This document shows positions 40,406 to 54,657 of a stretch of 64,000 bases of DNA, one piece after another (position 1 is the first letter of the stretch; each line of letters starts with the position of its first letter). Where the stretch lies: the IMG/VR virus record IMGVR_UViG_3300042507_004106; one strand, 5' to 3'. This DNA is from a virus (taxonomy: Duplodnaviria; Caudoviricetes). Position numbers and translations under genes: made by a program. The notes beneath the pieces are model-generated. The model saw nothing but the letters and a program-made list of their open reading frames with translations. It was not told the origin of the DNA and did no database searches.

Positions 40406-40576
40406 TCAGTCTCTTTCTGATAAAACGACTTCGTTACCCTCTAAGGTAAACTTAACTTCTGTGTCTTCGTACCATGAAAGATCGTTTATGATCTGCTCAG
40501 GTATTACAAGGTAGTATTCACCGTTAATTGGATCGACTTGTATCGTCTCAAAAATATCTCCGGAATTTTTTTTCAT
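40406..40576 (-). CDS. small AbrB/MazE-like protein
   Basis: Hand-found 56 aa: ...GEYYLVIPEQIINDLSWYEDTEVKFTLEGNEVVLSERD (swapped-hairpin pattern xIPxxxxxxLxxxxxxxVxxxxxGxxxxL). Confidence 0.55.
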   Translation of the reverse strand: MKKNSGDIFETIQVDPINGEYYLVIPEQIINDLSWYEDTEVKFTLEGNEVVLSERD

Positions 40577-40773
40577 TTCAGTATATGATTGAACCTTTTC
40601 TGCTATTATATATTCTCCGGGATTTTTTGAATAGAGAGATATTGAAAGGTCGATCTGGGTCGTTTATAGCTTATGGGGACCCATTCATTATAACACGGGG
40701 GCGGGGTAGGGGACCGCAACCCCCCACCCACTGCCGATCACGAACGAATAAGACTGCCCCCACGAACAGCGGG

Positions 40774-40944
40774 TCACCCCCGCCCCGCGAATGCCTCAGA
40801 GTACTGGGCGGCGATGGCGACGGCGGGCAGACCCCAGTGGATGTAGGCGGAGGGGCGGGAACCGTTCTTCAGTTGGTCGTGGCGGGAGATCCATTTGATC
40901 TGGCGGGTCTCCAGGTCAGAGCACATGCAGAGGGGGAAGCGCAT
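40774..40944 (-). CDS. small early hypothetical protein
   Basis: 56 aa from MRFPLCMCSDLETRQIKW; preceded by TTGCGA-17-TACAAT. Confidence 0.65.
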   Translation of the reverse strand: MRFPLCMCSDLETRQIKWISRHDQLKNGSRPSAYIHWGLPAVAIAAQYSEAFAGRG

Positions 40945-40969
40945 CGGTCTGGGGTGGTGAACTGAGAGA

Positions 40970-40998
40970 ATTGTACAGCATCGGGGGGCGGATCGCAA
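40970..40998 (-). promoter_or_regulatory. early promoter TTGCGA-17-TACAAT
   Basis: -35 at 40998-40993, -10 at 40975-40970. Confidence 0.75.
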
Positions 40999-41014
40999 CC
41001 CACCCCCTCACGAA

Positions 41015-41275
41015 TCAGATGCCTGCCATTGCGGCGACCAGCCGATCACGCTTGCGGATCGCTTCGGGCAGGATGAACCACTCATCACGCTTGCCGTTGG
41101 CGTGGCAGGTGGCGGCGAGGATGCGCTCCTGCTCCATGTCCACCATCAGGGCATGGATGGTGCCCTTGTGGCGGCGGGGGTCAAGACCCATAGAGCGCAC
41201 CAGGTCGGAGCAGGTCATGGGGCCATCGTTGATCAGGTGAGTGCGGATGGCGGCGCAGATGATGGAGGTGAGCAT
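41015..41275 (-). CDS. winged-helix-like small protein
   Basis: 86 aa; AIRTHLINDGPMTCSDLVRSMGLD...TIHALMVDMEQERIL..(wing)..WFI follows the wHTH pattern. Confidence 0.55.
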   Translation of the reverse strand: MLTSIICAAIRTHLINDGPMTCSDLVRSMGLDPRRHKGTIHALMVDMEQERILAATCHANGKRDEWFILPEAIRKRDRLVAAMAGI

Positions 41276-41289
41276 GGTTCGGGGTCCTG

Positions 41290-41311
41290 TGAACTGAGAG
41301 TATTGTAGCAG
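41290..41311 (-). promoter_or_regulatory. extended -10 early promoter TGCTACAAT
   Basis: Minus strand CTGCTACAATACTCTCAGTTCA; same motif at 41497-41519 and 41971-41993. Confidence 0.75.
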
Positions 41312-41312
41312 G

Positions 41313-41480
41313 TCAAAAGGCGACCTCATGATCCCAGTAGAGATGCCACAGGGCGGTCAGAGTCTCCCGCTCCCGCTGCTGACGGTAGTGTGCCCAGGAC
41401 TCGTGCTCAAAGGGACGCAGGGCGGCAGCGCGGGCAGCGGCGCAGCGCATCGCGTTGTCGGCCCAGGTGTGGTTGGTCAT
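41313..41480 (-). CDS. small early hypothetical protein
   Basis: 55 aa from MTNHTWADNAMRC; own promoter at 41507-41512. Confidence 0.6.
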   Translation of the reverse strand: MTNHTWADNAMRCAAARAAALRPFEHESWAHYRQQRERETLTALWHLYWDHEVAF

Positions 41481-41496
41481 CGGTGGGGGAGGTGTC

Positions 41497-41519
41497 GGTT
41501 GAGAGTATTGTAGCAGATC
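41497..41519 (-). promoter_or_regulatory. extended -10 early promoter, 23-nt repeat copy
   Basis: Plus strand GGTTGAGAGTATTGTAGCAGATC, identical to 41971-41993. Confidence 0.75.
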
Positions 41520-41530
41520 GGGGGGGGGGC

Positions 41531-41692
41531 TCACTGCCCGTTGGTGTAGTCTCCGATGATGACCCCGTTGCAGCGGACCTGAGCGTAACCGTACTCTTCA
41601 GAGAGGTCCAGGCACAGGAGCCAGGCGCGGTCGGCGTCGGTGGTGGTGTTCTCCCAAGGAGCGGAGGGGCAGAACACGTCGTAGCGGGTCAT
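41531..41692 (-). CDS. small early hypothetical protein
   Basis: Hand-found 53 aa MTRYDVFCPSAPWENTTTDADRAWLLCLDLSEEYGYAQVRCNGVIIGDYTNGQ; TATACT box at 41716-41721. Confidence 0.7.
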   Translation of the reverse strand: MTRYDVFCPSAPWENTTTDADRAWLLCLDLSEEYGYAQVRCNGVIIGDYTNGQ

Positions 41693-41760
41693 GAGAGGTT
41701 GTCTGAACTGAAGTCAGTATAGCGGGTCGGTGGGGGGCATCGCGGCCCCCAGTGTGCGGT

Positions 41761-41958
41761 TCAGGAATTGGGCCAGAGGGCGTTGGCGATCTTATCAGCA
41801 GCGCCCTGCAGGTTGTCGCGGACGATCAGGCGGAGGATCTCAGCACCGTCAGGGGTGGCGTGCATCTGGCGGATCATGCTAGGGGTGAAGCAATCCCAGG
41901 TGATCACATCAGCAGTCTGCAGGAGTTGGGCGTCGGCGTTGGAGATGGTGTGAGTCAT
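41761..41958 (-). CDS. small early hypothetical protein
   Basis: 65-aa ORF directly after the promoter at 41971-41993. Confidence 0.7.
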   Translation of the reverse strand: MTHTISNADAQLLQTADVITWDCFTPSMIRQMHATPDGAEILRLIVRDNLQGAADKIANALWPNS

Positions 41959-41970
41959 GGGGTTCGTTGC

Positions 41971-41993
41971 GGTTGAGAGTATTGTAGCAGATC
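41971..41993 (-). promoter_or_regulatory. extended -10 early promoter, 23-nt repeat copy
   Basis: Identical to 41497-41519. Confidence 0.75.
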
Positions 41994-42213
41994 AGGCGTC
42001 CCGTGCTGCTAGGAGCAGGGCATGAAATTTGTGGAATTCGTGGGTCATGCCAGGGGAGAGAGTCGGGCGTCCCTTGCTGCCGTGAGTCGGAAGGTGGAAG
42101 GTCTGGGGGATGCTAGGATGGGTCACCTTGTCGTGACTGCCCCCTGATTTGATGGTTGCTCCTGCCTTCAGGAACTGGCGGCGGGCGTCGCGTACCTTGA
42201 TTGGGGATGCCAT
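41992..42213 (-). CDS. hicA: HicA-like (dsRBD-fold) mRNA interferase, solo
   Basis: 73 aa MASPIKVRDARRQFLKAGATIKSGGSHDKVTHPSIPQTFHLPTHG..TLSPGM; has the HicA GSH catalytic His and the HP..T.P.H...L.PG pattern. Confidence 0.72.
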   Translation of the reverse strand: MASPIKVRDARRQFLKAGATIKSGGSHDKVTHPSIPQTFHLPTHGSKGRPTLSPGMTHEFHKFHALLLAARDA

Positions 42214-42226
42214 AGGAGGGTCGGGG

Positions 42227-42394
42227 TCAGTGGCGGTCGCTGATGTCCCACACGCCCCAGCCGCCGTTGGCGTGAGCGTCGCGGACTTCGATCGCCTGCT
42301 GCCTCTGGGCGCTGGTGTAGGTTGCCCAACCATCGCTGTTGAGGTCGTCGCCGTAGCAGGCATTCCAGATTAGGTTCGCTTCGGTCAGGGTCAT
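42227..42394 (-). CDS. small early hypothetical protein upstream of hicA
   Basis: Hand-found 55 aa MTLTEANLIWNACYGDDLNSDGWATYTSAQRQQAIEVRDAHANGGWGVWDISDRH; TATACT box at 42418-42423. Confidence 0.65.
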   Translation of the reverse strand: MTLTEANLIWNACYGDDLNSDGWATYTSAQRQQAIEVRDAHANGGWGVWDISDRH

Positions 42395-42463
42395 GAGTCG
42401 TTTGCTTTGGTTCCCATAGTATAAGACCCCCAGCGGCGAACCGTGGGGGTCTGGTGGTCAGAT

Positions 42464-42631
42464 TCAGAACTGGATCGGATCGGCGGTCGGGGCGCTGATT
42501 GCCGCATAATGGGCGGCGCAGTCAGCGATGCCTGCCTGCTCAACGTCGCTGGTGATGGTATCCAGGATCTGCAGGATGCTGTCCCCGTTGCTACCTTGGC
42601 GGAGCAGGGACAGGGCAAGGTCGCGGGTCAT
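42464..42631 (-). CDS. small early hypothetical protein
   Basis: 55 aa from MTRDLALSLLRQGSNGDSILQILDTI. Confidence 0.7.
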   Translation of the reverse strand: MTRDLALSLLRQGSNGDSILQILDTITSDVEQAGIADCAAHYAAISAPTADPIQF

Positions 42632-42689
42632 TTGGAATTCGGGTAGAAAGGTTGGCGGAGTCTTTAGGGGCGCTGCCGTTCCCATTGTA

Positions 42690-42851
42690 TCAGCGTTCGA
42701 GTTGCGCCAGACTGCTAGGGGCGATGTGAGAGGGAGAACCACAGGAGCGGTAGAAGTCTACCATGCGGTCTGCCTCCTCTTTACTGGTGAACCACTGCGA
42801 CCGCCACTCACAAGCGTTGTAGGGGGTCTGGTAACGGACTTCGAAGCGCAT
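42690..42851 (-). CDS. small early hypothetical protein
   Basis: Hand-found 53 aa MRFEVRYQTPYNACEWRSQWFTSKEEADRMVDFYRSCGSPSHIA; TAGAAT box upstream. Confidence 0.7.
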   Translation of the reverse strand: MRFEVRYQTPYNACEWRSQWFTSKEEADRMVDFYRSCGSPSHIAPSSLAQLER

Positions 42852-42887
42852 GGGGTCGTTTGCTTGGTATGGAAGAATTCTACAGGG

Positions 42888-43004
42888 TCAGCGGGAGACG
42901 ATATCGCCTGCGGTGTGCAGTGCGCTTGCCGTCACACTGCGGATCGGTTCCAGCGGACCCCAGAGAGTGTAAGCGACGCAACCCAGAACCAGCAGTTTAA
43001 ACAT
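42888..43004 (-). CDS. small membrane-anchored peptide
   Basis: Hand-found 38 aa MFKLLVLGCVAYTLWGPLEPIRSVTASALHTAGDIVSR. Confidence 0.5.
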   Translation of the reverse strand: MFKLLVLGCVAYTLWGPLEPIRSVTASALHTAGDIVSR

Positions 43005-44263: not shown

Positions 44264-45157
44264 TTATGCGACCTGAAACCGTCCGCTGTTGAAATTATGA
44301 TAAGCGAACACCTCACGATTCACCAGTTTGAACATACCAAACTCATTGGTCATCACATAACCTTCGGCATCAATACGGTTGCCATTGATGTATGCTGCAG
44401 GTCCGTCATTGCGGCAGATAAACAGGCAGTCATCTTTGATGCTCTTTACCAATGCCCACAAACGAATCAGGTTAGCGTCACAATCGAAATCTTCTGCGAC
44501 GATCTGATCACCCGAACGGATGCAAGCGTTGATCTGCTGTTTGATCTTTGCTGCTTCCTTCTCACTCACGAACTGAGCAGTAGTAGACATTTGACGGGCA
44601 AAATCTACAACCTCTTTTACATCAGCGAACGACTCTTGATTGTGCAGAATGTAAGCATCAGGTTTGATGAACTTCACCGTTTCAGTATCATTCCAGACGG
44701 CACGATCAGGCATTGCGACTGCATCACGAAGGTCGCTCTCAGCATAATAGCAAGTGTGAGGAGCGATGATAATCTCTTGAGAAACTACCTCACCAAACTT
44801 GTAAGTGATCGTATTGGGGCAATACTCATCACTACCGCCAAAACCAATAAAATCACCTTGAATGATAGCATTTGCGCGAGGCAGATAATCAAAGCAAGAA
44901 TGCAGAATACGCGCAACTTCACCCTGATAGAATGCATCAATCTCTTCATGATTGTGTGCAATACGAATCTTTTTCTTGTTAAAGACTGCCTTGGTTCCTA
45001 CAAAGAATTCACCACAGGCAGGGTCGATGCCCCATACAATGGCGGGAGCACCGTCGATCTTAACGGACAGGGAACCAGGATTCACGAACCAATCCAGAAC
45101 GGACAGGTCGCCCGTGAGGATGGTATCTTCGGGGTGTTCGAGGTGGGTGTTCTTCAT
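44264..45157 (-). CDS. conserved cyanophage protein with covalent nucleotidyltransferase (ligase-like) motifs
   Basis: 297 aa from MKNTHLEHPED; SVKIDGAP (KxDG), IQGDF, EGYV, FKLVN. Confidence 0.65.
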   Translation of the reverse strand: MKNTHLEHPEDTILTGDLSVLDWFVNPGSLSVKIDGAPAIVWGIDPACGEFFVGTKAVFNKKKIRIAHNHEEIDAFYQGEVARILHSCFDYLPRANAIIQGDFIGFGGSDEYCPNTITYKFGEVVSQEIIIAPHTCYYAESDLRDAVAMPDRAVWNDTETVKFIKPDAYILHNQESFADVKEVVDFARQMSTTAQFVSEKEAAKIKQQINACIRSGDQIVAEDFDCDANLIRLWALVKSIKDDCLFICRNDGPAAYINGNRIDAEGYVMTNEFGMFKLVNREVFAYHNFNSGRFQVA

Positions 45158-45199
45158 GCTCTTAAGATACCAGGGATTCAGGGGCAGCACAAGCGGTAG

Positions 45200-45223
45200 G
45201 GTGCCACCTTACGAACTGGCACA
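45200..45223. promoter_or_regulatory. 24-bp palindromic box shared by divergent -10 elements
   Basis: GGTGCCACCT-TACG-AACTGGCACA; 30 nt from minus-strand TATCTT (45164-45169) and 30 nt from plus-strand TATACT (45254-45259). Confidence 0.75.
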
Positions 45224-45348
45224 GGGTGACCCTCTACGGGGTCTGTGGCGTCTTATACTAAGGTCACAAGCGAAGGAGGGGCGGGGTAGCCCTGAAGACG
45301 AAAAAGGTCGCCACTGGGGCAGCTTTGAAATAGTAAGAAAGAAAGTAT

Positions 45349-45373
45349 AAAAAAAGGGAGGCAATCGCCCCCC
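45349..45373 (-). terminator. intrinsic terminator
   Basis: Minus strand GGGGGGC-GATT-GCCTCCC followed by a T7 run, just after the 45380 stop. Confidence 0.8.
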
Positions 45374-45379
45374 GATTCT

Positions 45380-45727
45380 TTATGCGAACATGAACCCATC
45401 TTGGAATTCGTATTCATTGTAGACAGGAGAAGTTCCTGCCTGCCCGATGAACTTGTGGACGAACCAATTGAAGTTGCGTTGAAACACACATTCGCCCTTG
45501 ATTCCATGCTCTTGAAGAATAGCATTCAGGCGCGATTTGGTGGTCACAGACTGATAACCACCGTCAAAGATTTGCACGAAGTCATCACCAATGGTGGCGA
45601 TGTGATTGCCGTGCAGGAACACTTTAGACTCTTGAGTTTCAGGGTCAAAGGTAACCTCAGTGTTGCCAGACTTCCAGTTGATGGAGTCACGAATGGCGGC
45701 GTTCATCTGCTGTTCGATCTTACGCAT
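45380..45727 (-). CDS. conserved cyanophage hypothetical protein
   Basis: 115 aa from MRKIEQQMNAAI; VFLHGNHIA, QSVTTKSRLNAIL; promoter TTGCAA-17-CATACT upstream. Confidence 0.75.
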   Translation of the reverse strand: MRKIEQQMNAAIRDSINWKSGNTEVTFDPETQESKVFLHGNHIATIGDDFVQIFDGGYQSVTTKSRLNAILQEHGIKGECVFQRNFNWFVHKFIGQAGTSPVYNEYEFQDGFMFA

Positions 45728-45788
45728 TGGGGGTTTCCCTCTCAACAAATACAGTATGGATCAGATCGGGGGCAATTGCAAGGGGTCT

Positions 45789-45812
45789 TGTGCCACCTTG
45801 TGGACTGTCACA
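45789..45812. promoter_or_regulatory. 24-bp palindromic box (copy)
   Basis: TGTGCCACCT-TGTG-GACTGTCACA, 30 nt from CATACT at 45753-45758. Confidence 0.8.
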
Positions 45813-45816
45813 TGGT

Positions 45817-45966
45817 TCAGGAAGTGTAGAGTGCGAAGTTGTACTGTTGCTGCAAACGAGTCAGAATGTCATCCCAGAACTCTTTATCCTCATCGTCATT
45901 GTATTGGTTGTTATCTTCAACCAAACGAATCAGATTGTTAAGATCGTCAGGAGTGAGATAGTTCAT
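45817..45966 (-). CDS. small acidic protein
   Basis: Hand-found 49 aa MNYLTPDDLNNLIRLVEDNNQYNDDEDKEFWDDILTRL; TGATG coupling to the upstream gene. Confidence 0.7.
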   Translation of the reverse strand: MNYLTPDDLNNLIRLVEDNNQYNDDEDKEFWDDILTRLQQQYNFALYTS

Positions 45967-46121
45967 CAGACTTCATCCCTCATTTCAGAAAGTTTGTCAT
46001 ACAATGCAGAAACATCTACATTCAGTTGTTCACTCACGAAACTCCAATCATCATGAAACTCAATGAGTGCCAGAATGGCATCCAGTTCCTCAAATGTCAA
46101 CGAAGTGAGAGTCATTGTCAT
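45966..46121 (-). CDS. small acidic protein
   Basis: Hand-found 51 aa MTMTLTSLTFEELDAILALIEFHDDWSFVSEQL; TGATG coupling. Confidence 0.7.
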   Translation of the reverse strand: MTMTLTSLTFEELDAILALIEFHDDWSFVSEQLNVDVSALYDKLSEMRDEV

Positions 46122-46246
46122 CAGTAATCGTAGTTTGCGTTCAGGTACTCATTCACATCGAACTTTTCATCTTTCAGTTCGGGAATGTCCATGTCAAAGA
46201 TCTCACCAGGAGCATCTTGAATCTCAGACCAGAGTTCATCAAACAT
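46121..46246 (-). CDS. small acidic protein
   Basis: Hand-found 41 aa MFDELWSEIQDAPGEIFDMDIPELKDEKFDVNEYLNANYDY. Confidence 0.7.
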   Translation of the reverse strand: MFDELWSEIQDAPGEIFDMDIPELKDEKFDVNEYLNANYDY

Positions 46247-46283
46247 GGTTTGTCTCTCAGGAACGAATGTAATGTAGCAGGAA

Positions 46284-46541
46284 TCAGGAACGCTTGGTGC
46301 GCTTCTGTGCCACTTTCACAGGCGGCACATCAGCATTCAGTTGTGCCAGCAGTTGATCCACAATGGTATCAACGAACTGCAGAACAGTTTGCATCATCTT
46401 ACGGGTCTTTTCTTTGCCATTGTTCTCATTGAACGAACGCACAGCAAACTGTACAATTCCCACAACGATTGCGGAGATGGTAGCAACGTTGAAGATCAAC
46501 GTGTCGATGAAAGTCCAGTAGAAAGTGTTGGTGGTTTTCAT
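46284..46541 (-). CDS. small membrane protein
   Basis: 85 aa from MKTTNTFYW, with hydrophobic segment LIFNVATISAIVVGIVQFAV. Confidence 0.65.
   Translation of the reverse strand: MKTTNTFYWTFIDTLIFNVATISAIVVGIVQFAVRSFNENNGKEKTRKMMQTVLQFVDTIVDQLLAQLNADVPPVKVAQKRTKRS
46306..46329. promoter_or_regulatory. 24-bp palindromic box (copy, inside a CDS tail)
   Basis: TGTGCCACTT-TCAC-AGGCGGCACA, 29 nt from TACATT at 46271-46276. Confidence 0.75.
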
Positions 46542-46626
46542 AACAAATGGTGTGGGAGGTTGGTGTAGAGAATTCCTCAACCACGAATCAAACATAACAG
46601 GGGGGCAGCACGAATGCAACCCCCCT

Positions 46627-46650
46627 TGTACCACTATCCCAACTGTCCCA
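46627..46650. promoter_or_regulatory. 24-bp palindromic box (copy)
   Basis: TGTACCACTA-TCCC-AACTGTCCCA, 30 nt from TATGTT at 46591-46596. Confidence 0.65.
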
Positions 46651-46780
46651 CGAACTCCTGAATATAATAATCCAGCGGCAATTCCAGACGGTTTGCCTCA
46701 CTTTCCCATTCTTTCCATTCGGCTTCCGAAGCATCATTAATGAAGTCTTCGAAAGTATATTCAAAAGCGGGACCGCACAT
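46634..46780 (-). CDS. small acidic protein (LxxYYxQEFV family)
   Basis: 48 aa from MCGPAFEYTFEDF. Confidence 0.65.
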   Translation of the reverse strand: MCGPAFEYTFEDFINDASEAEWKEWESEANRLELPLDYYIQEFVGQLG

Positions 46781-46840
46781 AATCAAAAACTCAGGAACGA
46801 ATGCAATGTAGGACGGATTGGGCAGGAAGTCTAGGGGTCT

Positions 46841-46864
46841 TGTGCCACCTTGTAGACTGTCACA
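46841..46864. promoter_or_regulatory. 24-bp palindromic box (copy)
   Basis: TGTGCCACCT-TGTA-GACTGTCACA, 30 nt from TACATT at 46805-46810. Confidence 0.8.
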
Positions 46865-47066
46865 CCTCCGCCAATTGATTAATAATATTGCGGGCAAACT
46901 TCATGAAATCATAAGCAGTCACACCACCTTTGTGATTGTCGATAGCATAACCATCCAAAACATCGGTTTGATTATACGTGTTCACAATCAGCAGGCAAGC
47001 ATCATACAGTGCTGCAGAATGTTCTTCCTTGGAGTTAAACTGGAGAGCGTTGAAGGAAGGAAGCAT
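46860..47066 (-). CDS. small hypothetical protein
   Basis: 68 aa from MLPSFNALQF; its TGA lies inside the palindrome. Confidence 0.65.
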   Translation of the reverse strand: MLPSFNALQFNSKEEHSAALYDACLLIVNTYNQTDVLDGYAIDNHKGGVTAYDFMKFARNIINQLAEV

Positions 47067-47124
47067 CAGGAATCTCAGCGACGAATGTAACATAACCGAT
47101 TTCCGCCCCCACCACAAGGGGGAT

Positions 47125-47148
47125 TGTGCCACTTCTAGAATCGTCACA
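47125..47148. promoter_or_regulatory. 24-bp palindromic box (copy)
   Basis: TGTGCCACTT-CTAG-AATCGTCACA, 30 nt from TATGTT at 47089-47094. Confidence 0.8.
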
Positions 47149-47186
47149 TATAACGCTAGCATTATATTGTATTATAATATTATAAC

Positions 47187-47210
47187 TGGTCCAGTTATAA
47201 AAGTGTCACA
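47187..47210. promoter_or_regulatory. 24-bp palindromic box (orphan copy)
   Basis: TGGTCCAGTT-ATAA-AAGTGTCACA; no -10 found at the usual 28-30 nt distance. Confidence 0.5.
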
Positions 47211-47213
47211 ATA

Positions 47214-47363
47214 TCAGAATGGATCAAATTCCTTGGTGCTAGCATAGACTTCTTCGTCACCTTCAAGATCTAATAATTCTTTCCAGTCTATATGTTCTAC
47301 ATCTAGATCATCATAACACATGATGTCTAAATGTACACGTACTAGGCGTTTCTGTGCTATCAT
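47214..47363 (-). CDS. small acidic protein
   Basis: Hand-found 49 aa MIAQKRLVRVHLDIMCYDDLDVEHIDWKELLDLEGDEEVYASTKEFDPF. Confidence 0.7.
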   Translation of the reverse strand: MIAQKRLVRVHLDIMCYDDLDVEHIDWKELLDLEGDEEVYASTKEFDPF

Positions 47364-47394
47364 AGTACTAGATGCATATGTGTACTAGATTGTA

Positions 47395-47535
47395 TCATGC
47401 ATAATGACGATACGCGAGATCTTGATAATCATGCGCGTCTCGTGCATAGTCCTCGTCGAGCTCTTGTGTATAATACTCTTCGAGATCCGCATAATCGTTT
47501 GTGTATGTGTAGTCGAGATCGTAATCGTCGTACAT
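47395..47535 (-). CDS. Tyr/Asp-rich microprotein
   Basis: Hand-found 46 aa MYDDYDLDYTYTNDYADLEEYYTQELDEDYARDAHDYQDLAYRHYA; TGCTACAAT box upstream. Confidence 0.6.
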   Translation of the reverse strand: MYDDYDLDYTYTNDYADLEEYYTQELDEDYARDAHDYQDLAYRHYA

Positions 47536-47619
47536 AACTCGTCGAGCTTATTGAATACTAGTATATTGTAGCATAAAGCTCGACGAGATGCAAACTAGAT
47601 GTGAGTTCTCGTCGAGCTT
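47452..47619. repeat. four copies of CTCGTCGAGCT(T), two forming a 12-bp inverted repeat
   Basis: Copies at 47452, 47538 and 47608 (direct) and 47576-47587 (inverted). Confidence 0.85.
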
Positions 47620-47680
47620 CTAGTACATATATATGCAATCTAGTTGATTTCTAGTCTAGCTTTATGTTAGAATACAAATA

Positions 47681-48049
47681 ATGTTTAGACTAGATTTTAT
47701 AATGAGATCTCTACGAGAATTAAATCCACTTCTAGAAGGATATTGTGCGACTTATGATGGTAAGGTAATATCTAGAAAAAATAAAGTACTTAAGCAATTC
47801 AGAAGGAACAAACAGTCTAGGTGTCCCTATTTAAGTATCAGTGTGTGGGATAAGACCTCTGGTTTTGCAAGACAATTCTTTGTACATCGACTTGTAGCGT
47901 ATCAATATTGTGATTTAAATCTTGAAGATATAACAGGTCTTGTGGTTAATCATATCGATGGTAACCCTCATAATAACCATGCAAAAAACTTAGAGTGGGT
48001 TACGCAAAAAGAAAACGTACTTAAGTATCACAGTAACGTTATAACATAA
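47681..48049 (+). CDS. HNH homing-type endonuclease (NUMOD4/HNH_3-like)
   Basis: FFVHRLVAY..VVNHIDGNPHNNHAKNLEWVTQKENV; the only clear plus-strand gene in the window. Confidence 0.85.
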   Translation: MFRLDFIMRSLRELNPLLEGYCATYDGKVISRKNKVLKQFRRNKQSRCPYLSISVWDKTSGFARQFFVHRLVAYQYCDLNLEDITGLVVNHIDGNPHNNHAKNLEWVTQKENVLKYHSNVIT

Positions 48050-48107
48050 TTGCATGAGGTCTGTGTGAATTTTTGTGTCGGTCTGGGGATATTTGCGGGG
48101 GTGGGGC

Positions 48108-48136
48108 TTGACGAACTGCGAGTCTTATGCTACGCT
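48108..48136 (+). promoter_or_regulatory. plus-strand sigma70-type promoter TTGACG-17-TACGCT (extended -10)
   Basis: -35 at 48108-48113, 17-nt spacer ending in TGC, -10 at 48131-48136; no ORF downstream. Confidence 0.6.
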
Positions 48137-48149
48137 CGCTTAGCTCACA

Positions 48150-48259
48150 AGACCTGGAGGGGTTTATAAGGTACTGGAGGCATTTATAAGCATTTAGAGC
48201 ACTTAGACCTGGAGGGGTTTATAAGGTACTGGAGGCATTTATAAGCATTTAGAGCACTT
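48150..48259. repeat. perfect 55-bp tandem duplication with internal CTGGAGGnnTTTATAAG subrepeats
   Basis: AGACCTGGAGGGGTTTATAAGGTACTGGAGGCATTTATAAGCATTTAGAGCACTT x2 (48150-48204, 48205-48259). Confidence 0.9.
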
Positions 48260-48325
48260 AATTCAAATAATACAAGGATATAACACTAACATTATACAAC
48301 CAAACAAATCACACAAATATATTTT

Positions 48326-48538
48326 TTAATACATTTTTAATTGATTTTGTTGTTGAACAGTATCACAATCATTCCAATGTCTAACTACTCCAGCAATGAT
48401 AAAACAGTTGGTAATCAGATAGGTTGCGAAGATAATAGTACGAATGATTGCGATTCTATCAGACTCTTTATCACACTTGGATGCTTTCTCACCTAATGAC
48501 TTTGCCCACCATCTCCACAGTGTTTTTTTCTTTTTCAT
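48326..48538 (-). CDS. small membrane protein
   Basis: 70 aa; WRWWAKSLGEKA..D, then hydrophobic IRTIIFATYLITNCFIIAGVVRHW. Confidence 0.7.
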   Translation of the reverse strand: MKKKKTLWRWWAKSLGEKASKCDKESDRIAIIRTIIFATYLITNCFIIAGVVRHWNDCDTVQQQNQLKMY

Positions 48539-48783
48539 ACCTTACACATAACCTCTGAATACTTATCCTTTCTATATCCTATAACCTTTAATTCATCCCA
48601 TTGATAAGGATAACATAAGACAAGCACTCGGTTATTCTTATGAAGTGAACACGCTTGAAGATTAAGTTCATCTTTGGGAATAACTCTTGTCTCAATGGTA
48701 ATATAAGATTGATCTACAAAGTAAACCCATCCTTCTACTCCTTTAGTCCATTGAACATAATCATTCAAACGTGGTTTATACAT
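48535..48783 (-). CDS. hypothetical protein
   Basis: 82-aa ORF overlapping both neighbours. Confidence 0.7.
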   Translation of the reverse strand: MYKPRLNDYVQWTKGVEGWVYFVDQSYITIETRVIPKDELNLQACSLHKNNRVLVLCYPYQWDELKVIGYRKDKYSEVMCKV

Positions 48784-49066
48784 AAGCAGCTTCTAATGGT
48801 GTGAGTTTAAGTTGCATTGCAGAGTATGGAGTTGTATCTTCAATCTTTACGCACTTACCAACGGTCTTACTATTAACTGGGGCGAAGTATTCTTTTGTCT
48901 TTGAATTATAGAATCCCCAAATACACCGAACAGAAGCACCAAGGTTATAATCAAACTTACGAGTGTTGTGAATCCAGATTGCGGTAACATTACGCTTGAA
49001 TGGAACTTGTTCATAATAATAACCTTTGGGTGCTTGATGTGGAAATTCAGGAATCACGGACTGCAC
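48776..49066 (-). CDS. hypothetical protein
   Basis: 96 aa; FPHQAPKGYYYE, IWGFYNSKTK. Confidence 0.7.
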   Translation of the reverse strand: MQSVIPEFPHQAPKGYYYEQVPFKRNVTAIWIHNTRKFDYNLGASVRCIWGFYNSKTKEYFAPVNSKTVGKCVKIEDTTPYSAMQLKLTPLEAAYV

Positions 49067-49208
49067 GGAGATACTTTGGATTGTAACCTAAAGACAGATA
49101 ATTGTTTAACATTAGATCACACTGTTCTTTCGTCAGATTCTTTGCATCCTCTTCAATCAATGCCCAACCGTGAGAGAACAGTTCTTCAATACGATACAGT
49201 TGTGTCAT
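49047..49208 (-). CDS. small hypothetical protein
   Basis: Hand-found 53 aa MTQLYRIEELFSHGWALIEEDAKNLTKEQCD..GYNPKYLRAVRDS. Confidence 0.65.
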   Translation of the reverse strand: MTQLYRIEELFSHGWALIEEDAKNLTKEQCDLMLNNYLSLGYNPKYLRAVRDS

Positions 49209-49435
49209 GTGGTAAATGCCTCCAGAAGTCCAGACTCATATTCATCAACCAAAGCGAACTTTTGAGCGTTCACGACTCTTTCCATAATGCGATCAGTGTA
49301 ACGATCATCAAACATTTGCTCTCGTGAAAGAATCTCAAATGCTTCAGTATCAGACTCGGCAATCAGATTGATCAGACCTCCATATTCGGAAGAAGGGAAC
49401 GGCACCCAGTAGTCAACAATATACAGTGATTTCAT
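49205..49435 (-). CDS. small hypothetical protein
   Basis: 76 aa; YIVDYWVPFPSSEYGG. Confidence 0.7.
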   Translation of the reverse strand: MKSLYIVDYWVPFPSSEYGGLINLIAESDTEAFEILSREQMFDDRYTDRIMERVVNAQKFALVDEYESGLLEAFTT

Positions 49436-49436
49436 T

Positions 49437-49628
49437 TCAGTTTGTTTTGGACTCCTTTATTTTAGTATAGGGATTAGTGTTTGTCAAGCAGGTGAGTTGT
49501 CTTTCAATTTCAAACTTAATAGGCAGTAGATGAGAAGCAAAGAAACCAGCATACTCTCCCTCTTGTAAAAGATTGTAGATATTTTCAGTTTGTTGCAGTG
49601 CAAAGATTAACCGAGTACGTTTATTCAT
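49437..49628 (-). CDS. small hypothetical protein
   Basis: 63-aa ORF in tight tandem with neighbours. Confidence 0.65.
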   Translation of the reverse strand: MNKRTRLIFALQQTENIYNLLQEGEYAGFFASHLLPIKFEIERQLTCLTNTNPYTKIKESKTN

Positions 49629-49810
49629 TAAACAAACTCCTGAAGATAATACGTTAAAGATACATTCAATTCTTTTGCTTTCTGCTCATAAAAAGAATGT
49701 GTATACGACCGTGCTTCTTGCCATTTCAAATAAGAATCAATCTCAGTTTCAGAATGTTTCATAAAGTCTTCATAAGCATTCAGAAATTGTGCGATGTCTT
49801 CTTCACTCAT
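49628..49810 (-). CDS. small acidic protein (LxxYYxQEFV family)
   Basis: 60 aa ending KAKELNVSLTYYLQEFV. Confidence 0.65.
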   Translation of the reverse strand: MSEEDIAQFLNAYEDFMKHSETEIDSYLKWQEARSYTHSFYEQKAKELNVSLTYYLQEFV

Positions 49811-49934
49811 TGTTGTTTTTGAATGGATTGGTCGTAAGACTTGATCAGTTGCTCATCCCGTTGAATGAGAAAACCATTATACAACAGAATAAGCACAAAG
49901 CAACAGATTCCTGTGATTACAAACTTATCTTTCA

Positions 49935-50162
49935 TCAGCAGCACACCATCATTTTAATACGGGGAGTAGTGTGAAACTTCATTACTTGATAACCATAACC
50001 ATGAATGCGAGCATTTGCTTCATCCACCATATCACGTTTGGAAATCAGACGCTCGCTCATTTCCTTATTCTGAAAGGACGTGACTTGTACAAACTTTCCA
50101 GTCAGTCCCGCAGCAGGATAGAAATCAACCATCATGTTGCCGTCTTTTGAAATCAGTTGCAT
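49935..50162 (-). CDS. small hypothetical protein
   Basis: 75 aa; own TATAAT box at 50187-50192. Confidence 0.7.
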   Translation of the reverse strand: MQLISKDGNMMVDFYPAAGLTGKFVQVTSFQNKEMSERLISKRDMVDEANARIHGYGYQVMKFHTTPRIKMMVCC

Positions 50163-50194
50163 GGGGTGTCTCCCGATTACCTCTGTATTATAGA

Positions 50195-50398
50195 TCAGAA
50201 GGACGGCACCACGTCGTAGCGTAGACCAGTTTGCGAAGTGTCCATCTGCTCCCAGATCGTGTAAAGTTTATTATACAGTGCAGGAACACTTCCAAATTCC
50301 CGTGCGATTCGGTTCTCTTCACGCAGGTTAAGTTCCTGCAGTGCAGATAGAATTACACCAATTTCATGAACATTCAATTGTACAGTCATTTCAGTCAT
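50195..50398 (-). CDS. small hypothetical protein
   Basis: 67 aa; last codons carry a palindrome copy. Confidence 0.65.
   Translation of the reverse strand: MTEMTVQLNVHEIGVILSALQELNLREENRIAREFGSVPALYNKLYTIWEQMDTSQTGLRYDVVPSF
50222..50245. promoter_or_regulatory. 24-bp palindromic box (copy, inside a CDS tail)
   Basis: TAGACCAGTT-TGCG-AAGTGTCCAT, 29 nt from TATAAT at 50187-50192. Confidence 0.65.
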
Positions 50399-50402
50399 TT
50401 AA

Positions 50403-50768
50403 TCAGTCCCAAGATACATTTTCAAGAATAAAACCAGGCATCACATAAGTCCACCCAGATCCACCAGGTTTATAATCCCACTTATATTCAAATTGATTGT
50501 GACTATCCCAAGTCATATATCCTTTCTCTTTATCAAAACGACCTTTGATCGTCAGACTATGCTTATTAGAGAAAATGTTACGAGTGCGAAGTGCTCCGTT
50601 CGGTTCACGGGTTTCAATCACTACACAGACATCAGGATAGGTTTGAATTCCGTATTCCAAAATACAATTCGTTTCATACCGAAACGGACGGTATACTTTA
50701 GATTCAGTTTGCGCGAACGTAGGAGTCGCAAACAGAAGTGCAGCAGCAAGAAGAAGTTTTTTCATCAA
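50403..50768 (-). CDS. secreted/periplasmic hypothetical protein
   Basis: 121 aa with signal peptide MMKKLLLAAALLFATPTFA. Confidence 0.7.
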   Translation of the reverse strand: MMKKLLLAAALLFATPTFAQTESKVYRPFRYETNCILEYGIQTYPDVCVVIETREPNGALRTRNIFSNKHSLTIKGRFDKEKGYMTWDSHNQFEYKWDYKPGGSGWTYVMPGFILENVSWD

Positions 50769-50992
50769 TAGTGTGCCTCGGAATAATCAAGTTGAGTAGA
50801 GTATTCAGCAATCTTATTATAGCATTTCACTCGCATTTCGTCATCAGCACCTTTCATAAAGGAAAAGCAATACTTCATACGCTGTTCAGGATGTGCATTG
50901 ATTCGTGCGATCTCTGCTTGTTGCTTTTCACGATAAGAGTTGTAGGCAAACATCTCACGATCAGCGAAGGGCATGGTGCGAGAGGGGTGCAT
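50765..50992 (-). CDS. small hypothetical protein
   Basis: 75 aa; TATGAT box at 51018-51023. Confidence 0.65.
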   Translation of the reverse strand: MHPSRTMPFADREMFAYNSYREKQQAEIARINAHPEQRMKYCFSFMKGADDEMRVKCYNKIAEYSTQLDYSEAHY

Positions 50993-51018
50993 CTGGTGTT
51001 CTCTTGATTACCTTGTAA

Positions 51019-51498
51019 TCATACTGCCTGCAGCAGGCGATTGGGAAAGAACTGTGCCACTTGTGAATCTGTCCACCCGTTCTTCTCAAACAGATACTCA
51101 AGATATAAGGTTTCTTCCTGTTCCCGTGCTTCTATTTCATGTGGTTGATACCAATAGTCAATATCTTCCACACATTCTTTACCATAACACATTTTTCCGC
51201 GACGCATTCGCAGCGAACCGACCACCCACTGTCGCAGATGGACCAGTTCATGCAAAAGAGTTTTTATATACAACTCCTCCTCCATATGAGTCTGGAGTTC
51301 AATTATAAAGTGACGTGGGCGATAAAACTCACCAGCAACATCACAATACCCATAAACTCCTTCACGCTTTAGACCTCTATGAATAATATCCACATCGATC
51401 TGATGGCGTGGAAAGAATTTATTCAGAAACCAAGTGGTAACGTCCTCACAGAGGAGTTTAGAATAACCATATCCAGAAGTGTAAATGCTACTTTGCAT
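51019..51498 (-). CDS. zincin-like HExxH metallopeptidase-family protein
   Basis: TLLHELVHLRQW and YWYQPHEIEA; likely start MQSSIY. Confidence 0.7.
   Translation of the reverse strand: MQSSIYTSGYGYSKLLCEDVTTWFLNKFFPRHQIDVDIIHRGLKREGVYGYCDVAGEFYRPRHFIIELQTHMEEELYIKTLLHELVHLRQWVVGSLRMRRGKMCYGKECVEDIDYWYQPHEIEAREQEETLYLEYLFEKNGWTDSQVAQFFPNRLLQAV
51053..51076. promoter_or_regulatory. 24-bp palindromic box (copy, inside a CDS tail)
   Basis: TGTGCCACTT-GTGA-ATCTGTCCAC, 29 nt from TATGAT. Confidence 0.75.
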
Positions 51499-51553
51499 GA
51501 CCAATGAGAAAACCAAACAAAAGATGAAACAAAGAGAAGTTTCTCTCTACCAG

Positions 51554-51790
51554 TCATCGTGCGATCACATCAAGAGTTTCCATCATCATCAGCGAAAGTT
51601 CCATACGATTGTCTTCGTCAACTACAGGAATGTTTGTCTCAACAAACTCACTCACAAGTTCTTGAAGCAACTCAGTCATACGTTGGTCAGCATACACATA
51701 AGTAGCAAGTTCTCTCTTGAAACCATCACGCAGCAGTCGCAGAGACTTGGTAACAGTCAGTTCTTTGATTTCTTGAGCAGCGTCAAACAT
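51554..51790 (-). CDS. small hypothetical protein
   Basis: 78 aa from MFDAAQEIKELTVTKSLRLLRDGF. Confidence 0.65.
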   Translation of the reverse strand: MFDAAQEIKELTVTKSLRLLRDGFKRELATYVYADQRMTELLQELVSEFVETNIPVVDEDNRMELSLMMMETLDVIAR

Positions 51791-51816
51791 TGGAGGAAAA
51801 TAATAAAGTTGAACAA

Positions 51817-52167
51817 TCAGCGAGCGTAGAGATAACCACCTGCCCAATCTGCCTTTGCATACAACCATTCACGCTGTTCAATCAGACGCAGATCGTAGCG
51901 AACACCTTTAGCAGGAGATTTCCAAGAAGCAGACTTGTACAATTCACCAGTCTTACGGTCAACAAAAGCGTGAACAGAGCGACCACCAGCAGAATCAATC
52001 ATAATGACTTTGTGATACTTGCGACCCGACTCGATAATGTAGTCATAACCTTTAGGAGCGGCGTCCCTGAGAGCGTCACAGAGCATCAGAGTCCACTTGG
52101 TAACATTCAACTGGATGGTGTTCCTAGCGTCTTGCTGGGCAGCGTAGTCAGCGAAGGTTGCAGTCAT
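51817..52167 (-). CDS. conserved T4-like hypothetical protein
   Basis: 116 aa from MTATFADY; GRKYHKV, SVHAFVD.KTGELYKSASWKSPAKGVRY. Confidence 0.75.
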   Translation of the reverse strand: MTATFADYAAQQDARNTIQLNVTKWTLMLCDALRDAAPKGYDYIIESGRKYHKVIMIDSAGGRSVHAFVDRKTGELYKSASWKSPAKGVRYDLRLIEQREWLYAKADWAGGYLYAR

Positions 52168-52220
52168 CGGTTGGTTGCGTATGTGCTTATTATAGCGGCA
52201 CCTAGGCACCGCTCAGAGCG

Positions 52221-52346
52221 TCACTGTGCCAGTTCTGTATCTGGCACCCAGTAGTCATCATCATACAGGTATCCCATCCAATCTACAGGGTCAGAACCAT
52301 AGATCTCAATCTCACGCAGTTCTTCAATCAGTTCAGACAGATCCAT
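52221..52346 (-). CDS. small acidic protein
   Basis: Hand-found 41 aa MDLSELIEELREIEIYGSEPVDWMGYLYDDDYWVPDTELAQ. Confidence 0.65.
   Translation of the reverse strand: MDLSELIEELREIEIYGSDPVDWMGYLYDDDYWVPDTELAQ
52225..52248. promoter_or_regulatory. 24-bp palindromic box (copy, inside a CDS tail)
   Basis: TGTGCCAGTT-CTGT-ATCTGGCACC, 30 nt from TATAAT at 52189-52194. Confidence 0.8.
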
Positions 52347-52403
52347 CAGAAACCCTCAGATACTTTGGTATTATAGCAGAAAACCCGCCTTGTGGGCGGG
52401 TCT

Positions 52404-52427
52404 TGTGACGGTTCAGAAAGCGTCAGA
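52404..52427. promoter_or_regulatory. 24-bp palindromic box (copy)
   Basis: TGTGACGGTT-CAGA-AAGCGTCAGA, 28 nt from TATAAT at 52370-52375; overlaps the stop of the ParB-like gene. Confidence 0.75.
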
Positions 52428-53427
52428 GAGAAACGACGCCACCATCAGGATCGATATTAACTAACTGAGAGGGACGTACACCAAACTCAAAAGGCATCCA
52501 ATTTTTATCTGCTTTAATGAGAACTGCCATTTCTTGAATTGCCTCGGCAAGTTCAAGAAACTCTCTCTTTTGTTCTTCAATCATTTTTTCAACGTCTTTT
52601 GCCTTAGTGCCATTTGGTGCAAAAAGATTCACGCGAGTGCGCCTTCCAGTTTCTTTAAAGTCTTTAAGAATATGGCAGAAGTTACGAGGTCCATGAGTGG
52701 CATTTGCAGTAGCAGCAAAGGTACGACCGTGAAGACCATCTTCGTCCAGTTTGCCTTTTGAAGCATATCCTTTCTGTTGAAGATATTCTGCTGCCTTTGC
52801 TTCCGAAAAAGTGGCAACAGAAGTGTCTGGATATGCCTTATCAAAGATACGATCAGTAATCGTATTTACTTGGTCATTGGTAAAGGTGTGTTCGATGTTA
52901 TTAATCCAACCTTTAATATCGACCTTGGAAACTGTCCGATTTGGATGACGTTTCACCCAAAGAATTCCTTTGGTAATAAAGTCATCGCGGGTTGCTTTCT
53001 TAGCTTGTGCATGGTTATTTGCTCCAAGACCAATCTCATCTTCAAGATCTTCTAAACAATATCCTTCTTCCAATTCATAAACATCAAAAACCCAAGATTC
53101 TTGTTTACGAATTTTGAGAGCAGAAACGCGAGTGAATCCATCAATCAACTTATAGACTGCACCAACTTTTACAACAATAGGAGGAAGTTGATCGTAACGA
53201 ATACCTTTAGCAAACTCACCGACCAGAGCATCAGTGTGTACAGTATCTGTACCTTCTGAACGTGCAGTATTCTTTTCAGTACCTCCACCAACATCAATTC
53301 TATCAATTTCAGAAATGATTGTGTTTACATATTTTCCAGACTTAAATTTTCGACGTGCTTCACGATTAGGAAGCATATCGATATTGGGAACTTCGCAACG
53401 AGCGATAGGAGTGTGATTTTGAGACAT
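52423..53427 (-). CDS. ParB/Srx-N-like domain protein
   Basis: 334 aa; LPPIVVK...YKLIDGFTRVSALK matches the ParB-N P.I.V...Y.L.DG.HR pattern. Confidence 0.6.
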   Translation of the reverse strand: MSQNHTPIARCEVPNIDMLPNREARRKFKSGKYVNTIISEIDRIDVGGGTEKNTARSEGTDTVHTDALVGEFAKGIRYDQLPPIVVKVGAVYKLIDGFTRVSALKIRKQESWVFDVYELEEGYCLEDLEDEIGLGANNHAQAKKATRDDFITKGILWVKRHPNRTVSKVDIKGWINNIEHTFTNDQVNTITDRIFDKAYPDTSVATFSEAKAAEYLQQKGYASKGKLDEDGLHGRTFAATANATHGPRNFCHILKDFKETGRRTRVNLFAPNGTKAKDVEKMIEEQKREFLELAEAIQEMAVLIKADKNWMPFEFGVRPSQLVNIDPDGGVVSL

Positions 53428-53484
53428 AGTAAAAGTGCAATTTGACTTAATTCAATAGGGCATCTGCCCTTCTGAACTGAATAC

Positions 53485-53513
53485 ACTATAACCGATTGCT
53501 GGTCCCCCGTCAA
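53485..53513 (-). promoter_or_regulatory. sigma70-type promoter TTGACG-17-TATAGT
   Basis: -35 at 53513-53508, -10 at 53490-53485, upstream of the ParB-like gene. Confidence 0.7.
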
Positions 53514-53518
53514 GGGTC

Positions 53519-54232
53519 TTATTCGATTGTCACAGAATCTTCATACAACTGGAAAACGTCTCTCTTCTCACCGATTCCACGTACCGCCTTCTTCACACGC
53601 TCTTGCGTAATGTCAAAATACTGCTTGTCCATTTCAACACCAATAAACTTTCTACTGGTTTTCTTCGCAGCAATACCTACAGCACCACTACCCATACAAG
53701 GATCAAAAACAGTATCACCTCTCTGAGAACTTGCTTGAATTAATCTTTCCATTAATTCAATAGGTTTAGGTGTTGGGTGCCCTTTGTATTTTTCTGTAGC
53801 ACATTTCCAAACTGCAGACTTGCACCTTTCATTAGGATTAAAATATGCTCCTTGCTTTCTAGCAAAAACACAATTCTCTATGCTTGAAATCCACATATAC
53901 TGCCCATTCATGGGAGAAGGATTAGTTTTCTCCCATATACAGTGTCTCACAGATAGACCATGATCTATCAATCTGTTGCGAATATGTGAGACTTGAACTG
54001 ATCCACAAAAGATATAGATGCTTCCAGAAGTCACGCGCACGACTTCATCAATGAAATCATCTAATGGAAATGTAATAATATCTGCATGACTTTTATCCAG
54101 ATTTCTTAATCCACTACTCTTACGATTCACTTCATCGTATGGTATATCTGTAAGAGTAAGCGAAATGCTCCCATCAGCAAGTGAAGGGAGCACATTCATA
54201 CAATCATCGTTATATAATTTTACATCGGTCAT
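53519..54232 (-). CDS. beta-class N4-C/N6-A DNA methyltransferase
   Basis: 237 aa; motif IV LTDIPY, HPTPKPIEL, motif I FDPCMGSG. Confidence 0.88.
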   Translation of the reverse strand: MTDVKLYNDDCMNVLPSLADGSISLTLTDIPYDEVNRKSSGLRNLDKSHADIITFPLDDFIDEVVRVTSGSIYIFCGSVQVSHIRNRLIDHGLSVRHCIWEKTNPSPMNGQYMWISSIENCVFARKQGAYFNPNERCKSAVWKCATEKYKGHPTPKPIELMERLIQASSQRGDTVFDPCMGSGAVGIAAKKTSRKFIGVEMDKQYFDITQERVKKAVRGIGEKRDVFQLYEDSVTIE

Positions 54233-54247
54233 AGATTTTTTACTTAT

Positions 54248-54634: not shown

Positions 54635-54657
54635 CAGTGGTTTTCTTGAGTACCTTG

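Follow-up and report, generated by a model that had tools for sequence, protein, structure and literature searches.

HicA proteins are small RNases with a dsRBD-like fold that catalyse by means of a histidine, and HicA is the toxin half of bacterial hicAB modules. A first-pass annotation of IMG/VR virus record IMGVR_UViG_3300042507_004106, made from the DNA letters, proposed that a short gene encodes a HicA-like mRNA interferase, with no HicB-like gene beside it. This raises the questions of whether the phage carries a genuine HicA, whether this HicA stands alone, and what it would do during infection. We addressed them for the whole stretch of DNA that was analysed, which is 64,000 nucleotides long and is called the window here. 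The features of the window are collected in Table 1.

Table 1. Positions of the features discussed, in window coordinates.
Feature	Position	Strand	Description
High-GC island	40690..43000	.	Promoter-bearing mini-cassettes; 57-66% GC vs genome ~35%
orfX (motif SDL.TRQI.W)	40774..40944	(-)	Some 1 kb past hicA, downstream; possible functional partner, from co-occurrence only
Extended -10-like module CTGCTACAATACTCTCA	41974..41990	(-)	Promoter-like element of next cassette (orf65); starts 2 nt past hicA stop
hicA-like gene	41992..42213	(-)	ORF with Pfam/PHROG matches, predicted HicA fold, invariant His27
orf55	42227..42394	(-)	Small acidic gene between promoter/leader module and hicA; stop 13 nt before hicA ATG
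TATACT hexamer + shared leader module TATACTATGGGAACCAAAGCAA	42402..42423	(-)	Single exact copy in window
GC-rich hairpin	42424..42452	(-)	Closes preceding cassette; followed directly by -10-like hexamer
orf92-like gene, 55-aa core	42464..42631	(-)	Usual upstream neighbour of hicA in relatives
DUF6267 gene, 308-aa protein	44264-45190	(-)	E 1.8e-76; conserved among relatives

The gene encodes a predicted HicA-fold protein

The hicA-like ORF runs from an ATG at 42213 to a TGA at 41992-41994 and is intact, encoding a strongly basic protein of 73 aa with a G-S-H motif that contains His27. A 123-aa version starting at an ATG at 42363 was rejected; the homologues start with MASP or MQP. The HicA signature quoted in the first-pass annotation is present in the protein, including K-S-G-G-S-H, and only its spacing needed correction: seven residues, not four, separate 'LPTH' from 'L.PG'.

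The protein was compared with profiles of the HicA family. The Pfam HicA_toxin model (PF07927) matched residues 8-47 over profile positions 2-42 of 58 with an E value of 1.9e-4 and 21.9 bits, which falls under the gathering score of 27 for this model; the clade members P0075, P0081 and P0084 exceeded that threshold (27.6-31.1 bits). PHROG 18430, labelled 'toxin', matched with an E value of 1.7e-15, and the general HicA PHROG 353 (E 4.5e-5) and the PADLOC HicA-like model (E 0.033) also matched. When the sequences of PDB chains were searched with the single sequence P0001 or with the narrower family profile, no match was found. The broader family profile returned weak matches to two HicA-family chains (1whz and 9svk), and in these HMMER aligned His27 to the histidine of the G-x-H motif, 'GGH' in 1whz and 'GSH' in 9svk.

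The structure of the protein was modelled with AlphaFold2 using 41 homologues as input. The model (pLDDT 87.9) has the order alpha-beta-beta-beta-alpha, with helices at residues 7-16 and 54-72 and strands at 20-22, 27-32 and 35-42. When the model was compared with the PDB using VIA-align, the top six structures were all HicA toxins (6G26, 1WHZ, 5YRZ, 6HPB, 4P78 and 4C26; Z 8.2-5.5, rmsd 1.9-3.6 A); the top five superposed with an rmsd of about 2 A across 56-62 residues, and the first unrelated structure had a Z of 4.8. Foldseek against the PDB likewise gave HicA entries as four of its five best matches. The modelled protein thus superposes on solved HicA structures, and its residues G24-G25-S26-H27 place a histidine preceded by glycine, as in the G-x-H active site of HicA, at the start of strand 2. 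Taken together, and judged by sequence and model, the window gene encodes a genuine, though strongly diverged, HicA-fold protein. Of the comparisons with HicA that had been proposed beforehand, the one with Foldseek came out in favour of the assignment, and the one with the Pfam HMM was borderline, its match remaining under the gathering score.

The gene is under purifying selection

We collected 77 homologous ORFs from phage contigs, which reduced to 48 distinct sequences with identities down to 44%. All 77 extracted copies are intact ORFs of conserved length, and the median pairwise dN/dS was 0.17, so that the hicA-like gene is under purifying selection. Seven residues were invariant in the 48 distinct homologues (G18, H27, K29, H32, P42, G45 and G55). 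The histidine singled out as catalytic in the first-pass annotation was accordingly present in 48 of 48, and the preceding G24 was kept in 47. The P-x-H motif is followed by a clade-specific loop, HGSKGRPTLSPG (H-G-S-K-G-R-P-T-L-S-P-G), which is highly conserved and longer than the corresponding loop of canonical HicA.

The HicA clade occurs almost exclusively in T4-like cyanophages

The window comes from a T4-like cyanomyovirus of the Kyanoviridae type. Its genes lie almost without exception on the minus strand. Baseplate genes resembling gp6 and gp25, a gene for AdoMet decarboxylase and giant ORFs of structural type occupy the lower coordinates, and genes for Kyano_Gp96, DUF6267 and DUF7249 lie just above the high-GC island. 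In DNA comparisons, Synechococcus phages S-SRM01 and S-CREM1 came closest among isolates. The sequencing runs found to contain the window stretch were 19 runs of lake-water DNA, with no RNA run among them.

We determined how far the HicA-like family extends. With clustering at 90% identity, it accounted for 67 of the 5.8 billion clusters of the collection searched, and all of these that were sampled lay on phage-like contigs; IMG/VR contained 68 loci. A profile search of 1.84 billion representatives returned 19 clusters at E<=1e-3, several of which were spurious repeat proteins. Apparent long or fused HicA forms were also rejected as spurious, these profile matches being Ig-repeat, RHS-type and other unrelated proteins. 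Among 185,579 prokaryote species genomes, the sole match was one 2.6-kb contig of a metagenome-assembled genome (MAG). Every HicA context inspected, including those of the most distant members, consisted of strings of small phage ORFs with cyanomyovirus markers, and the clade has low-GC versions in marine phages and high-GC versions in freshwater phages. From this distribution the clade can be described, as far as sequence comparison goes, as phage-restricted and old; it is small and found almost only in T4-like cyanophages. The word 'domesticated', which the first-pass annotation had used for this toxin, fits so tiny and phage-restricted a distribution.

The single MAG contig (L013, CAYYXC010000180.1, 'uncultured Chitinophaga') carries a HicA of 84% identity together with a cyanophage promoter module and an orf92-like gene, and is most likely a phage fragment misbinned into the MAG. 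Among cultured phages the HicA carriers, at 48% identity, are S-RIM8, in which the gene is annotated as 'toxin', KBS-M-1A and S-RIM50. In S-RIM50 the HicA-like ORF of 76 aa is intact and without annotation (L002 2483-2713; NC_031242.1 ~41050-41280), and the deposited CDS gp183 (41010-41195) overlaps it in another frame.

The family is nevertheless patchy within its phages. When complete islands were sampled without bias by way of the backbone gene orf252, four of 19 had HicA, and hicA is an accessory gene.

hicA is carried as a promoter cassette in a high-GC island

The high-GC island (62% GC) has a sharp edge at ~40.65-40.70 kb, and intermediate GC continues onward to ~47.1 kb. The island is a hyperplastic region upstream of the baseplate module, with a GC content about 25 points above that of the backbone. 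Because the same high-GC architecture occupies the same slot in the independent contigs L003 and L007, the island is not an assembly artefact. A recent capture from a sequenced host was rejected, since only one short MAG contig among the 185,579 species genomes carries a relative; for the same reason the high GC content is unexplained by any known donor.

The island is an array of mini-cassettes in which a promoter-like module of one of two kinds precedes each tiny ORF. The first kind is the 17-nt extended -10-like module CTGCTACAATACTCTCA (TGn plus TACAAT), of which the window has three exact copies on the minus strand (41295-41311, 41500-41516 and 41974-41990) with 0.19 expected by chance. 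Each copy lies just upstream of a small ORF, and the motif flanks cassettes in many related contigs. The second kind is the TATACT/leader module, which in the window directly follows the GC-rich hairpin; a 76-nt stretch with this hairpin folded with an MFE of -24.7 kcal/mol (z -2.4), and the same arrangement of hairpin and -10-like hexamer precedes hicA in the related contig L008. The order in the window is therefore hairpin/TATACT module, orf55, 13 nt, hicA, 2 nt and the extended -10 module, and orf55 and hicA are probably co-transcribed in this phage.

The relatives are arranged more simply. A module of the CTGCTACAATACTCTCA type ends 14-15 nt ahead of the hicA ATG in about 14 related loci, and the TATACT/leader module ends 5-11 nt ahead of the hicA start in 13 related loci; a promoter-like module thus stands 5-15 nt ahead of the hicA ATG in at least 27 loci, with the next module after the hicA stop. 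Because hicA lies directly behind a module in these relatives, the comparison of loci suggests that the ancestral unit is a one-gene hicA cassette and that orf55 looks like an insertion.

The first letters of the shared leader are an ATG that lies within the TATACT module. This ATG begins, in the window (42402-42394), an 8-codon mini-ORF whose stop overlaps the ATG of orf55 (ATGA); in L008 (5001-5030) the leader ATG is in frame with hicA, and the resulting call is 82 aa long. The leader ATG is probably untranscribed if TATACT serves as the -10 element.

Where the small-gene region is lower in GC, a different element was found, a 24-bp palindrome (TGTGCCR-N10-TGKCACA) that occurs in at least 10 copies with up to two mismatches (45200-54718). 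It is absent from the high-GC part that contains hicA, including the vicinity of hicA itself, and the region therefore has two promoter architectures. The hicA cassette thus has none of the palindromic boxes that mark its neighbours at 45.2-54.7 kb, whose promoters are putatively early. The first-pass annotation had placed hicA in the 'earliest region', which is plausible because its promoters are of the type used by the host polymerase. An Rfam scan of 39.5-48.5 kb gave no match at E<=0.1.

Between the island and orf252 lies a conserved 56-aa gene (40406-40576, minus strand) that was present in 58 fetched loci. Its homologue in S-SRM01 is annotated as containing a DNA-binding domain; Pfam gave no match, and judged by eye the predicted protein may be a swapped hairpin of the AbrB/MazE type.

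No HicB is detectable beside the HicA-like gene

We asked whether a HicB is encoded near hicA or elsewhere. Pfam gave no HicB signal on eight neighbouring ORFs, PADLOC gave none on seven of these eight and one further neighbour, and the neighbours of related HicA loci were likewise without a HicB signal. The immediate neighbours of hicA differ between lineages. The HicB models PF15919 and PF05534 had no match at E<=1 in S-RIM8, S-RIM50 and two IMG/VR relatives of 236 and 234 kb that are 100% complete according to CheckV. In three of these four complete genomes the Pfam HicA model detected a single copy, and it missed the copy in the 234-kb relative. These data agree with the earlier statement that no HicB-like gene is adjacent: the window locus is without a recognisable adjacent HicB as in a type II hicAB module, and no cognate hicB was detected elsewhere in the four complete HicA-bearing relatives. 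A very divergent or minimal HicB could escape the HicB models, just as the window toxin is nearly missed by the HicA model.

Two neighbours of hicA were considered as partners and rejected. Of the 82 loci, 53 have the orf92-like gene upstream of hicA, often at a distance of 72-76 nt. The orf92-like gene also occurs in many HicA-less isolates and in nine of 15 HicA-less islands, and it is missing from several fully flanked HicA loci. The downstream orf65 has no homologue at any other HicA locus and occurs in HicA-less islands.

The 55-aa ORF upstream of hicA had been put forward as a possible novel antitoxin, and several features speak for this. It shares one promoter/leader with hicA and ends 13 nt before the hicA ATG, and it is acidic in contrast to the basic HicA. 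Its C-terminal tail shows conservation and predicted disorder. The window and L056/58 are two lineages in which it adjoins HicA, and in a third (L084-86) it is one gene away. The distribution of orf55, however, does not follow that of HicA. It adjoins hicA in three of 82 HicA loci, with three more (L084-86) in which another gene intervenes, and it is missing from about 76 of the 82, including the closest ones, in which HicA is 96% and 95% identical. At least four lineages have orf55 in islands that are without HicA, and among the 19 complete islands of the unbiased sample none had both genes, four had HicA only and one had orf55 only. Its order relative to HicA also varies by lineage, and in relatives hicA stands directly behind the same leader, so that orf55 looks like an inserted cassette gene. 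The earlier remark that orf55 has no HicB pattern was borne out, since Pfam and PADLOC were negative and the predicted structure (pLDDT 76) shows a helical hairpin whose conserved tail is disordered, and not a HicB fold. A complex prediction of HicA with orf55 scored 0.00, which gives no verdict and carries no weight either way. By these comparisons orf55 is not a conserved HicA partner, and we regard an antitoxin role for it as very improbable.

A candidate of another kind is orfX, which encodes a family of about 55-70 aa with the N-terminal motif S-D-L-x-T-R-Q-x-x-W. By iterative HMM searches of all fetched loci, 63 of the 82 HicA loci contain orfX, and its position is nearly always downstream. 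We examined co-occurrence in 72 loci that had been gathered in two different ways and that cover orf252 together with 3 kb or more on its upstream side. Both genes were present in 45 loci and both absent in 14; orfX occurred without HicA in 13, and HicA without orfX in none. Thus orfX was present in 45 of 45 freshwater HicA islands in which the 3' part is covered, compared with 13 of 27 HicA-less islands. The raw Fisher p value was 7e-8, a number that ignores the relatedness of the loci and the differing ways in which they were collected. On the backbone tree, nine independent pairs differ in HicA, and orfX differed in the same way in three to four of them and in the opposite way in none, which is not significant in a sign test (p 0.125-0.25).

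These observations allow a reading in which HicA is not solo: orfX would be a partner unrelated to HicB that neutralises or modulates HicA, the two being carried on separate promoter cassettes that can drift apart. The asymmetry of the counts is the one that a toxin and its antidote predict, with the toxin never found without orfX in these islands and orfX often found alone, and none of the nine independent pairs ran the other way. In addition, orfX lies immediately beside HicA, in either order, in four of the more divergent sets of HicA loci (L084-86, 3 nt apart; L180-182, ~15 nt; L177-179, ~60 nt; L176, 48 nt). Against this reading, the association falls short of significance once relatedness is taken into account, and cassettes with orfX are common towards the 3' end of the island, with or without HicA. 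The marine HicA branch (S-RIM8, S-RIM50 and L072-79) has no detectable orfX, its downstream genes being unrelated, and orfX gave no informative match to Pfam, PDB sequences or the ESM Atlas, thus resembling no known family or structure. In the window, hicA and orfX are ~1 kb and four cassettes apart, and a 4-nt gap relative to L020, L023 and L180 shifts the frame at the 3' end of orfX, so that the conserved C-terminus (H..EA...LP.W) is replaced by a short unrelated tail; the window copy may be decaying or a variant. We therefore consider such a partnership doubtful. Were orfX to replace HicB, as this co-occurrence tentatively suggests, the two would form a new phage-borne pair of toxin and partner in which HicA is held in check or directed, and the orfX genes of HicA-less phages could be stand-alone anti-HicA, that is, anti-defence, factors.

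Proposed role of the HicA-like protein

The reading that we favour, with moderate confidence, is that the gene encodes a solo HicA-fold protein, a putative RNase adapted to the phage, in a self-contained promoter cassette without HicB. We infer RNase activity, expression timing and target of the protein as follows. During infection, host RNA polymerase would transcribe the hicA cassette from its -10-type promoter, and the basic protein would bind RNA and cleave it via the conserved G-x-H histidine, His27. Cleavage could aid the takeover of the cell, either through decay of host mRNA and recycling of nucleotides or through processing of transcripts; alternatively, the protein could disable a competitor. 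The first-pass annotation had named host mRNA shut-off and the pre-empting of abortive defence as putative roles. A classical antitoxin would not be needed, because a virulent phage kills its host anyway. Some control, by specificity, timing or an unknown partner, may still be required, because the HicA of mycobacteriophage Adephagia, in the absence of its 65-aa HicB, harms the phage's own lytic growth (PMC11373665). The presence of orfX in all 45 freshwater HicA islands hints at such control.

It is also conceivable that the protein has kept the HicA/dsRBD-like fold and binds RNA as a regulator without cleaving it, for instance to control translation or the stability of transcripts. The dsRBD-like fold and the strongly basic surface would suit such a regulator, the long conserved loop HGSKGRPTLSPG is missing from canonical HicA, and the protein is tolerated without an antitoxin. 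However, the catalytic-type histidine, the glycine before it and the P-x-H motif are conserved down to 44% identity, so that retained catalysis is the simplest account, and we regard the regulator as improbable. A further explanation is that hicA has no function and is carried along, decaying or neutral, in an array of shuffling cassettes. Its patchy presence (four of 19 islands) and its high turnover, with at least 16 changes of state on the backbone tree, would speak for this. The low dN/dS, the intact length of all 77 copies, the invariance of the key HicA residues and the retention of the gene in both the low-GC marine and the high-GC freshwater lineages make this explanation barely credible.

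If the solo HicA-fold protein is an active RNase, it would be a phage-encoded enzyme used while infecting picocyanobacteria and could serve in host mRNA decay or in competition between phages. The virus type concerned includes the T4-like cyanophages that are abundant in lakes and oceans. Such an RNase would then join RegB of phage T4 as the second example of a toxin fold that works alone in a T4-type phage. The system also offers a tractable case for how a lytic phage tolerates an unrestrained toxin of a toxin-antitoxin (TA) module, whether by specificity, by timing or by a partner such as orfX.

Comparison with known systems

The closest structural relatives are the HicA toxins of bacterial hicAB modules, namely those of E. 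coli (6HPB), B. pseudomallei (6G26 and 4C26), Y. pestis (HicA3, 4P78), S. pneumoniae (5YRZ) and T. thermophilus (TTHA1913, 1WHZ). The window protein shares with them a length of ~60-75 aa, the a-b-b-b-a dsRBD-like fold as modelled, the histidine of G-x-H where strand 2 begins, the P-x-H motif and basic character. Unlike them, it has about 20% identity, a Pfam score under the threshold, a loop 4-5 residues longer and no HicB partner, and it is carried by virulent T4-like cyanophages in a promoter cassette and not in a TA operon or defence island. HicA is also a domain of anti-phage defence systems, and the survey of HicA contexts by Gerdes covers bacterial and archaeal modules (PMC10865869).

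Among phages, gp91 of Adephagia is likewise a HicA-like protein, of about 71 aa, with a catalytic histidine and an upstream glycine; its toxicity depends on the equivalent histidine, showing that phage HicA proteins can be strongly toxic (PMC11373665). Adephagia differs from the window phage in its temperate lifestyle and in the recognisable HicB of 65 aa, gp90, that is encoded directly upstream and is required for the normal growth of the phage (PMC11373665), whereas the window phage is of a virulent type and has no detectable HicB-like gene. The S-RIM8 protein (YP_007518140, PHROG 18430) and its S-RIM50 homologue are members of the same clade and, like the window gene, are solo in a run of small genes of a T4-like cyanophage. 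They differ from it in being marine and low in GC, in lying beside a helicase gene among other neighbours, and in having no orfX.

RegB of phage T4 is an early endoribonuclease with a toxin fold like that of RelE/YoeB, with no known antitoxin and with specificity for GGAG. It is similar to the window protein in concept, as a toxin-fold endoribonuclease used alone by a T4-type phage. This is a functional analogy only: the folds and families are unrelated (RelE-like versus HicA-like), and the specificity and role of RegB are known.

The cassettes themselves recall the PeSL cassettes of promoter and stem-loop described from hyperplastic regions of T4-like coliphages and vibriophages (PMC2839356, PMC4122927). 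In both, a stem-loop and a conserved motif resembling a promoter border the small ORFs and the content varies between close relatives, as seen here in the repeated modules that flank small ORFs and in the variable presence of hicA (four of 19 islands). The window differs in its motifs, which are CTGCTACAATACTCTCA or a hairpin followed by TATACT, and in a cassette GC content about 25 points above that of the backbone.

Our literature search on HicA in T4-like cyanophages, including the S-RIM8/S-RIM50 gene, found no paper; the existing database labels are 'toxin' for the S-RIM8 homologue and 'HicA-like' for one JGI cluster. What is new here, relative to these systems, is a phage-restricted, HicB-less HicA clade that is carried as a shuffling cassette.
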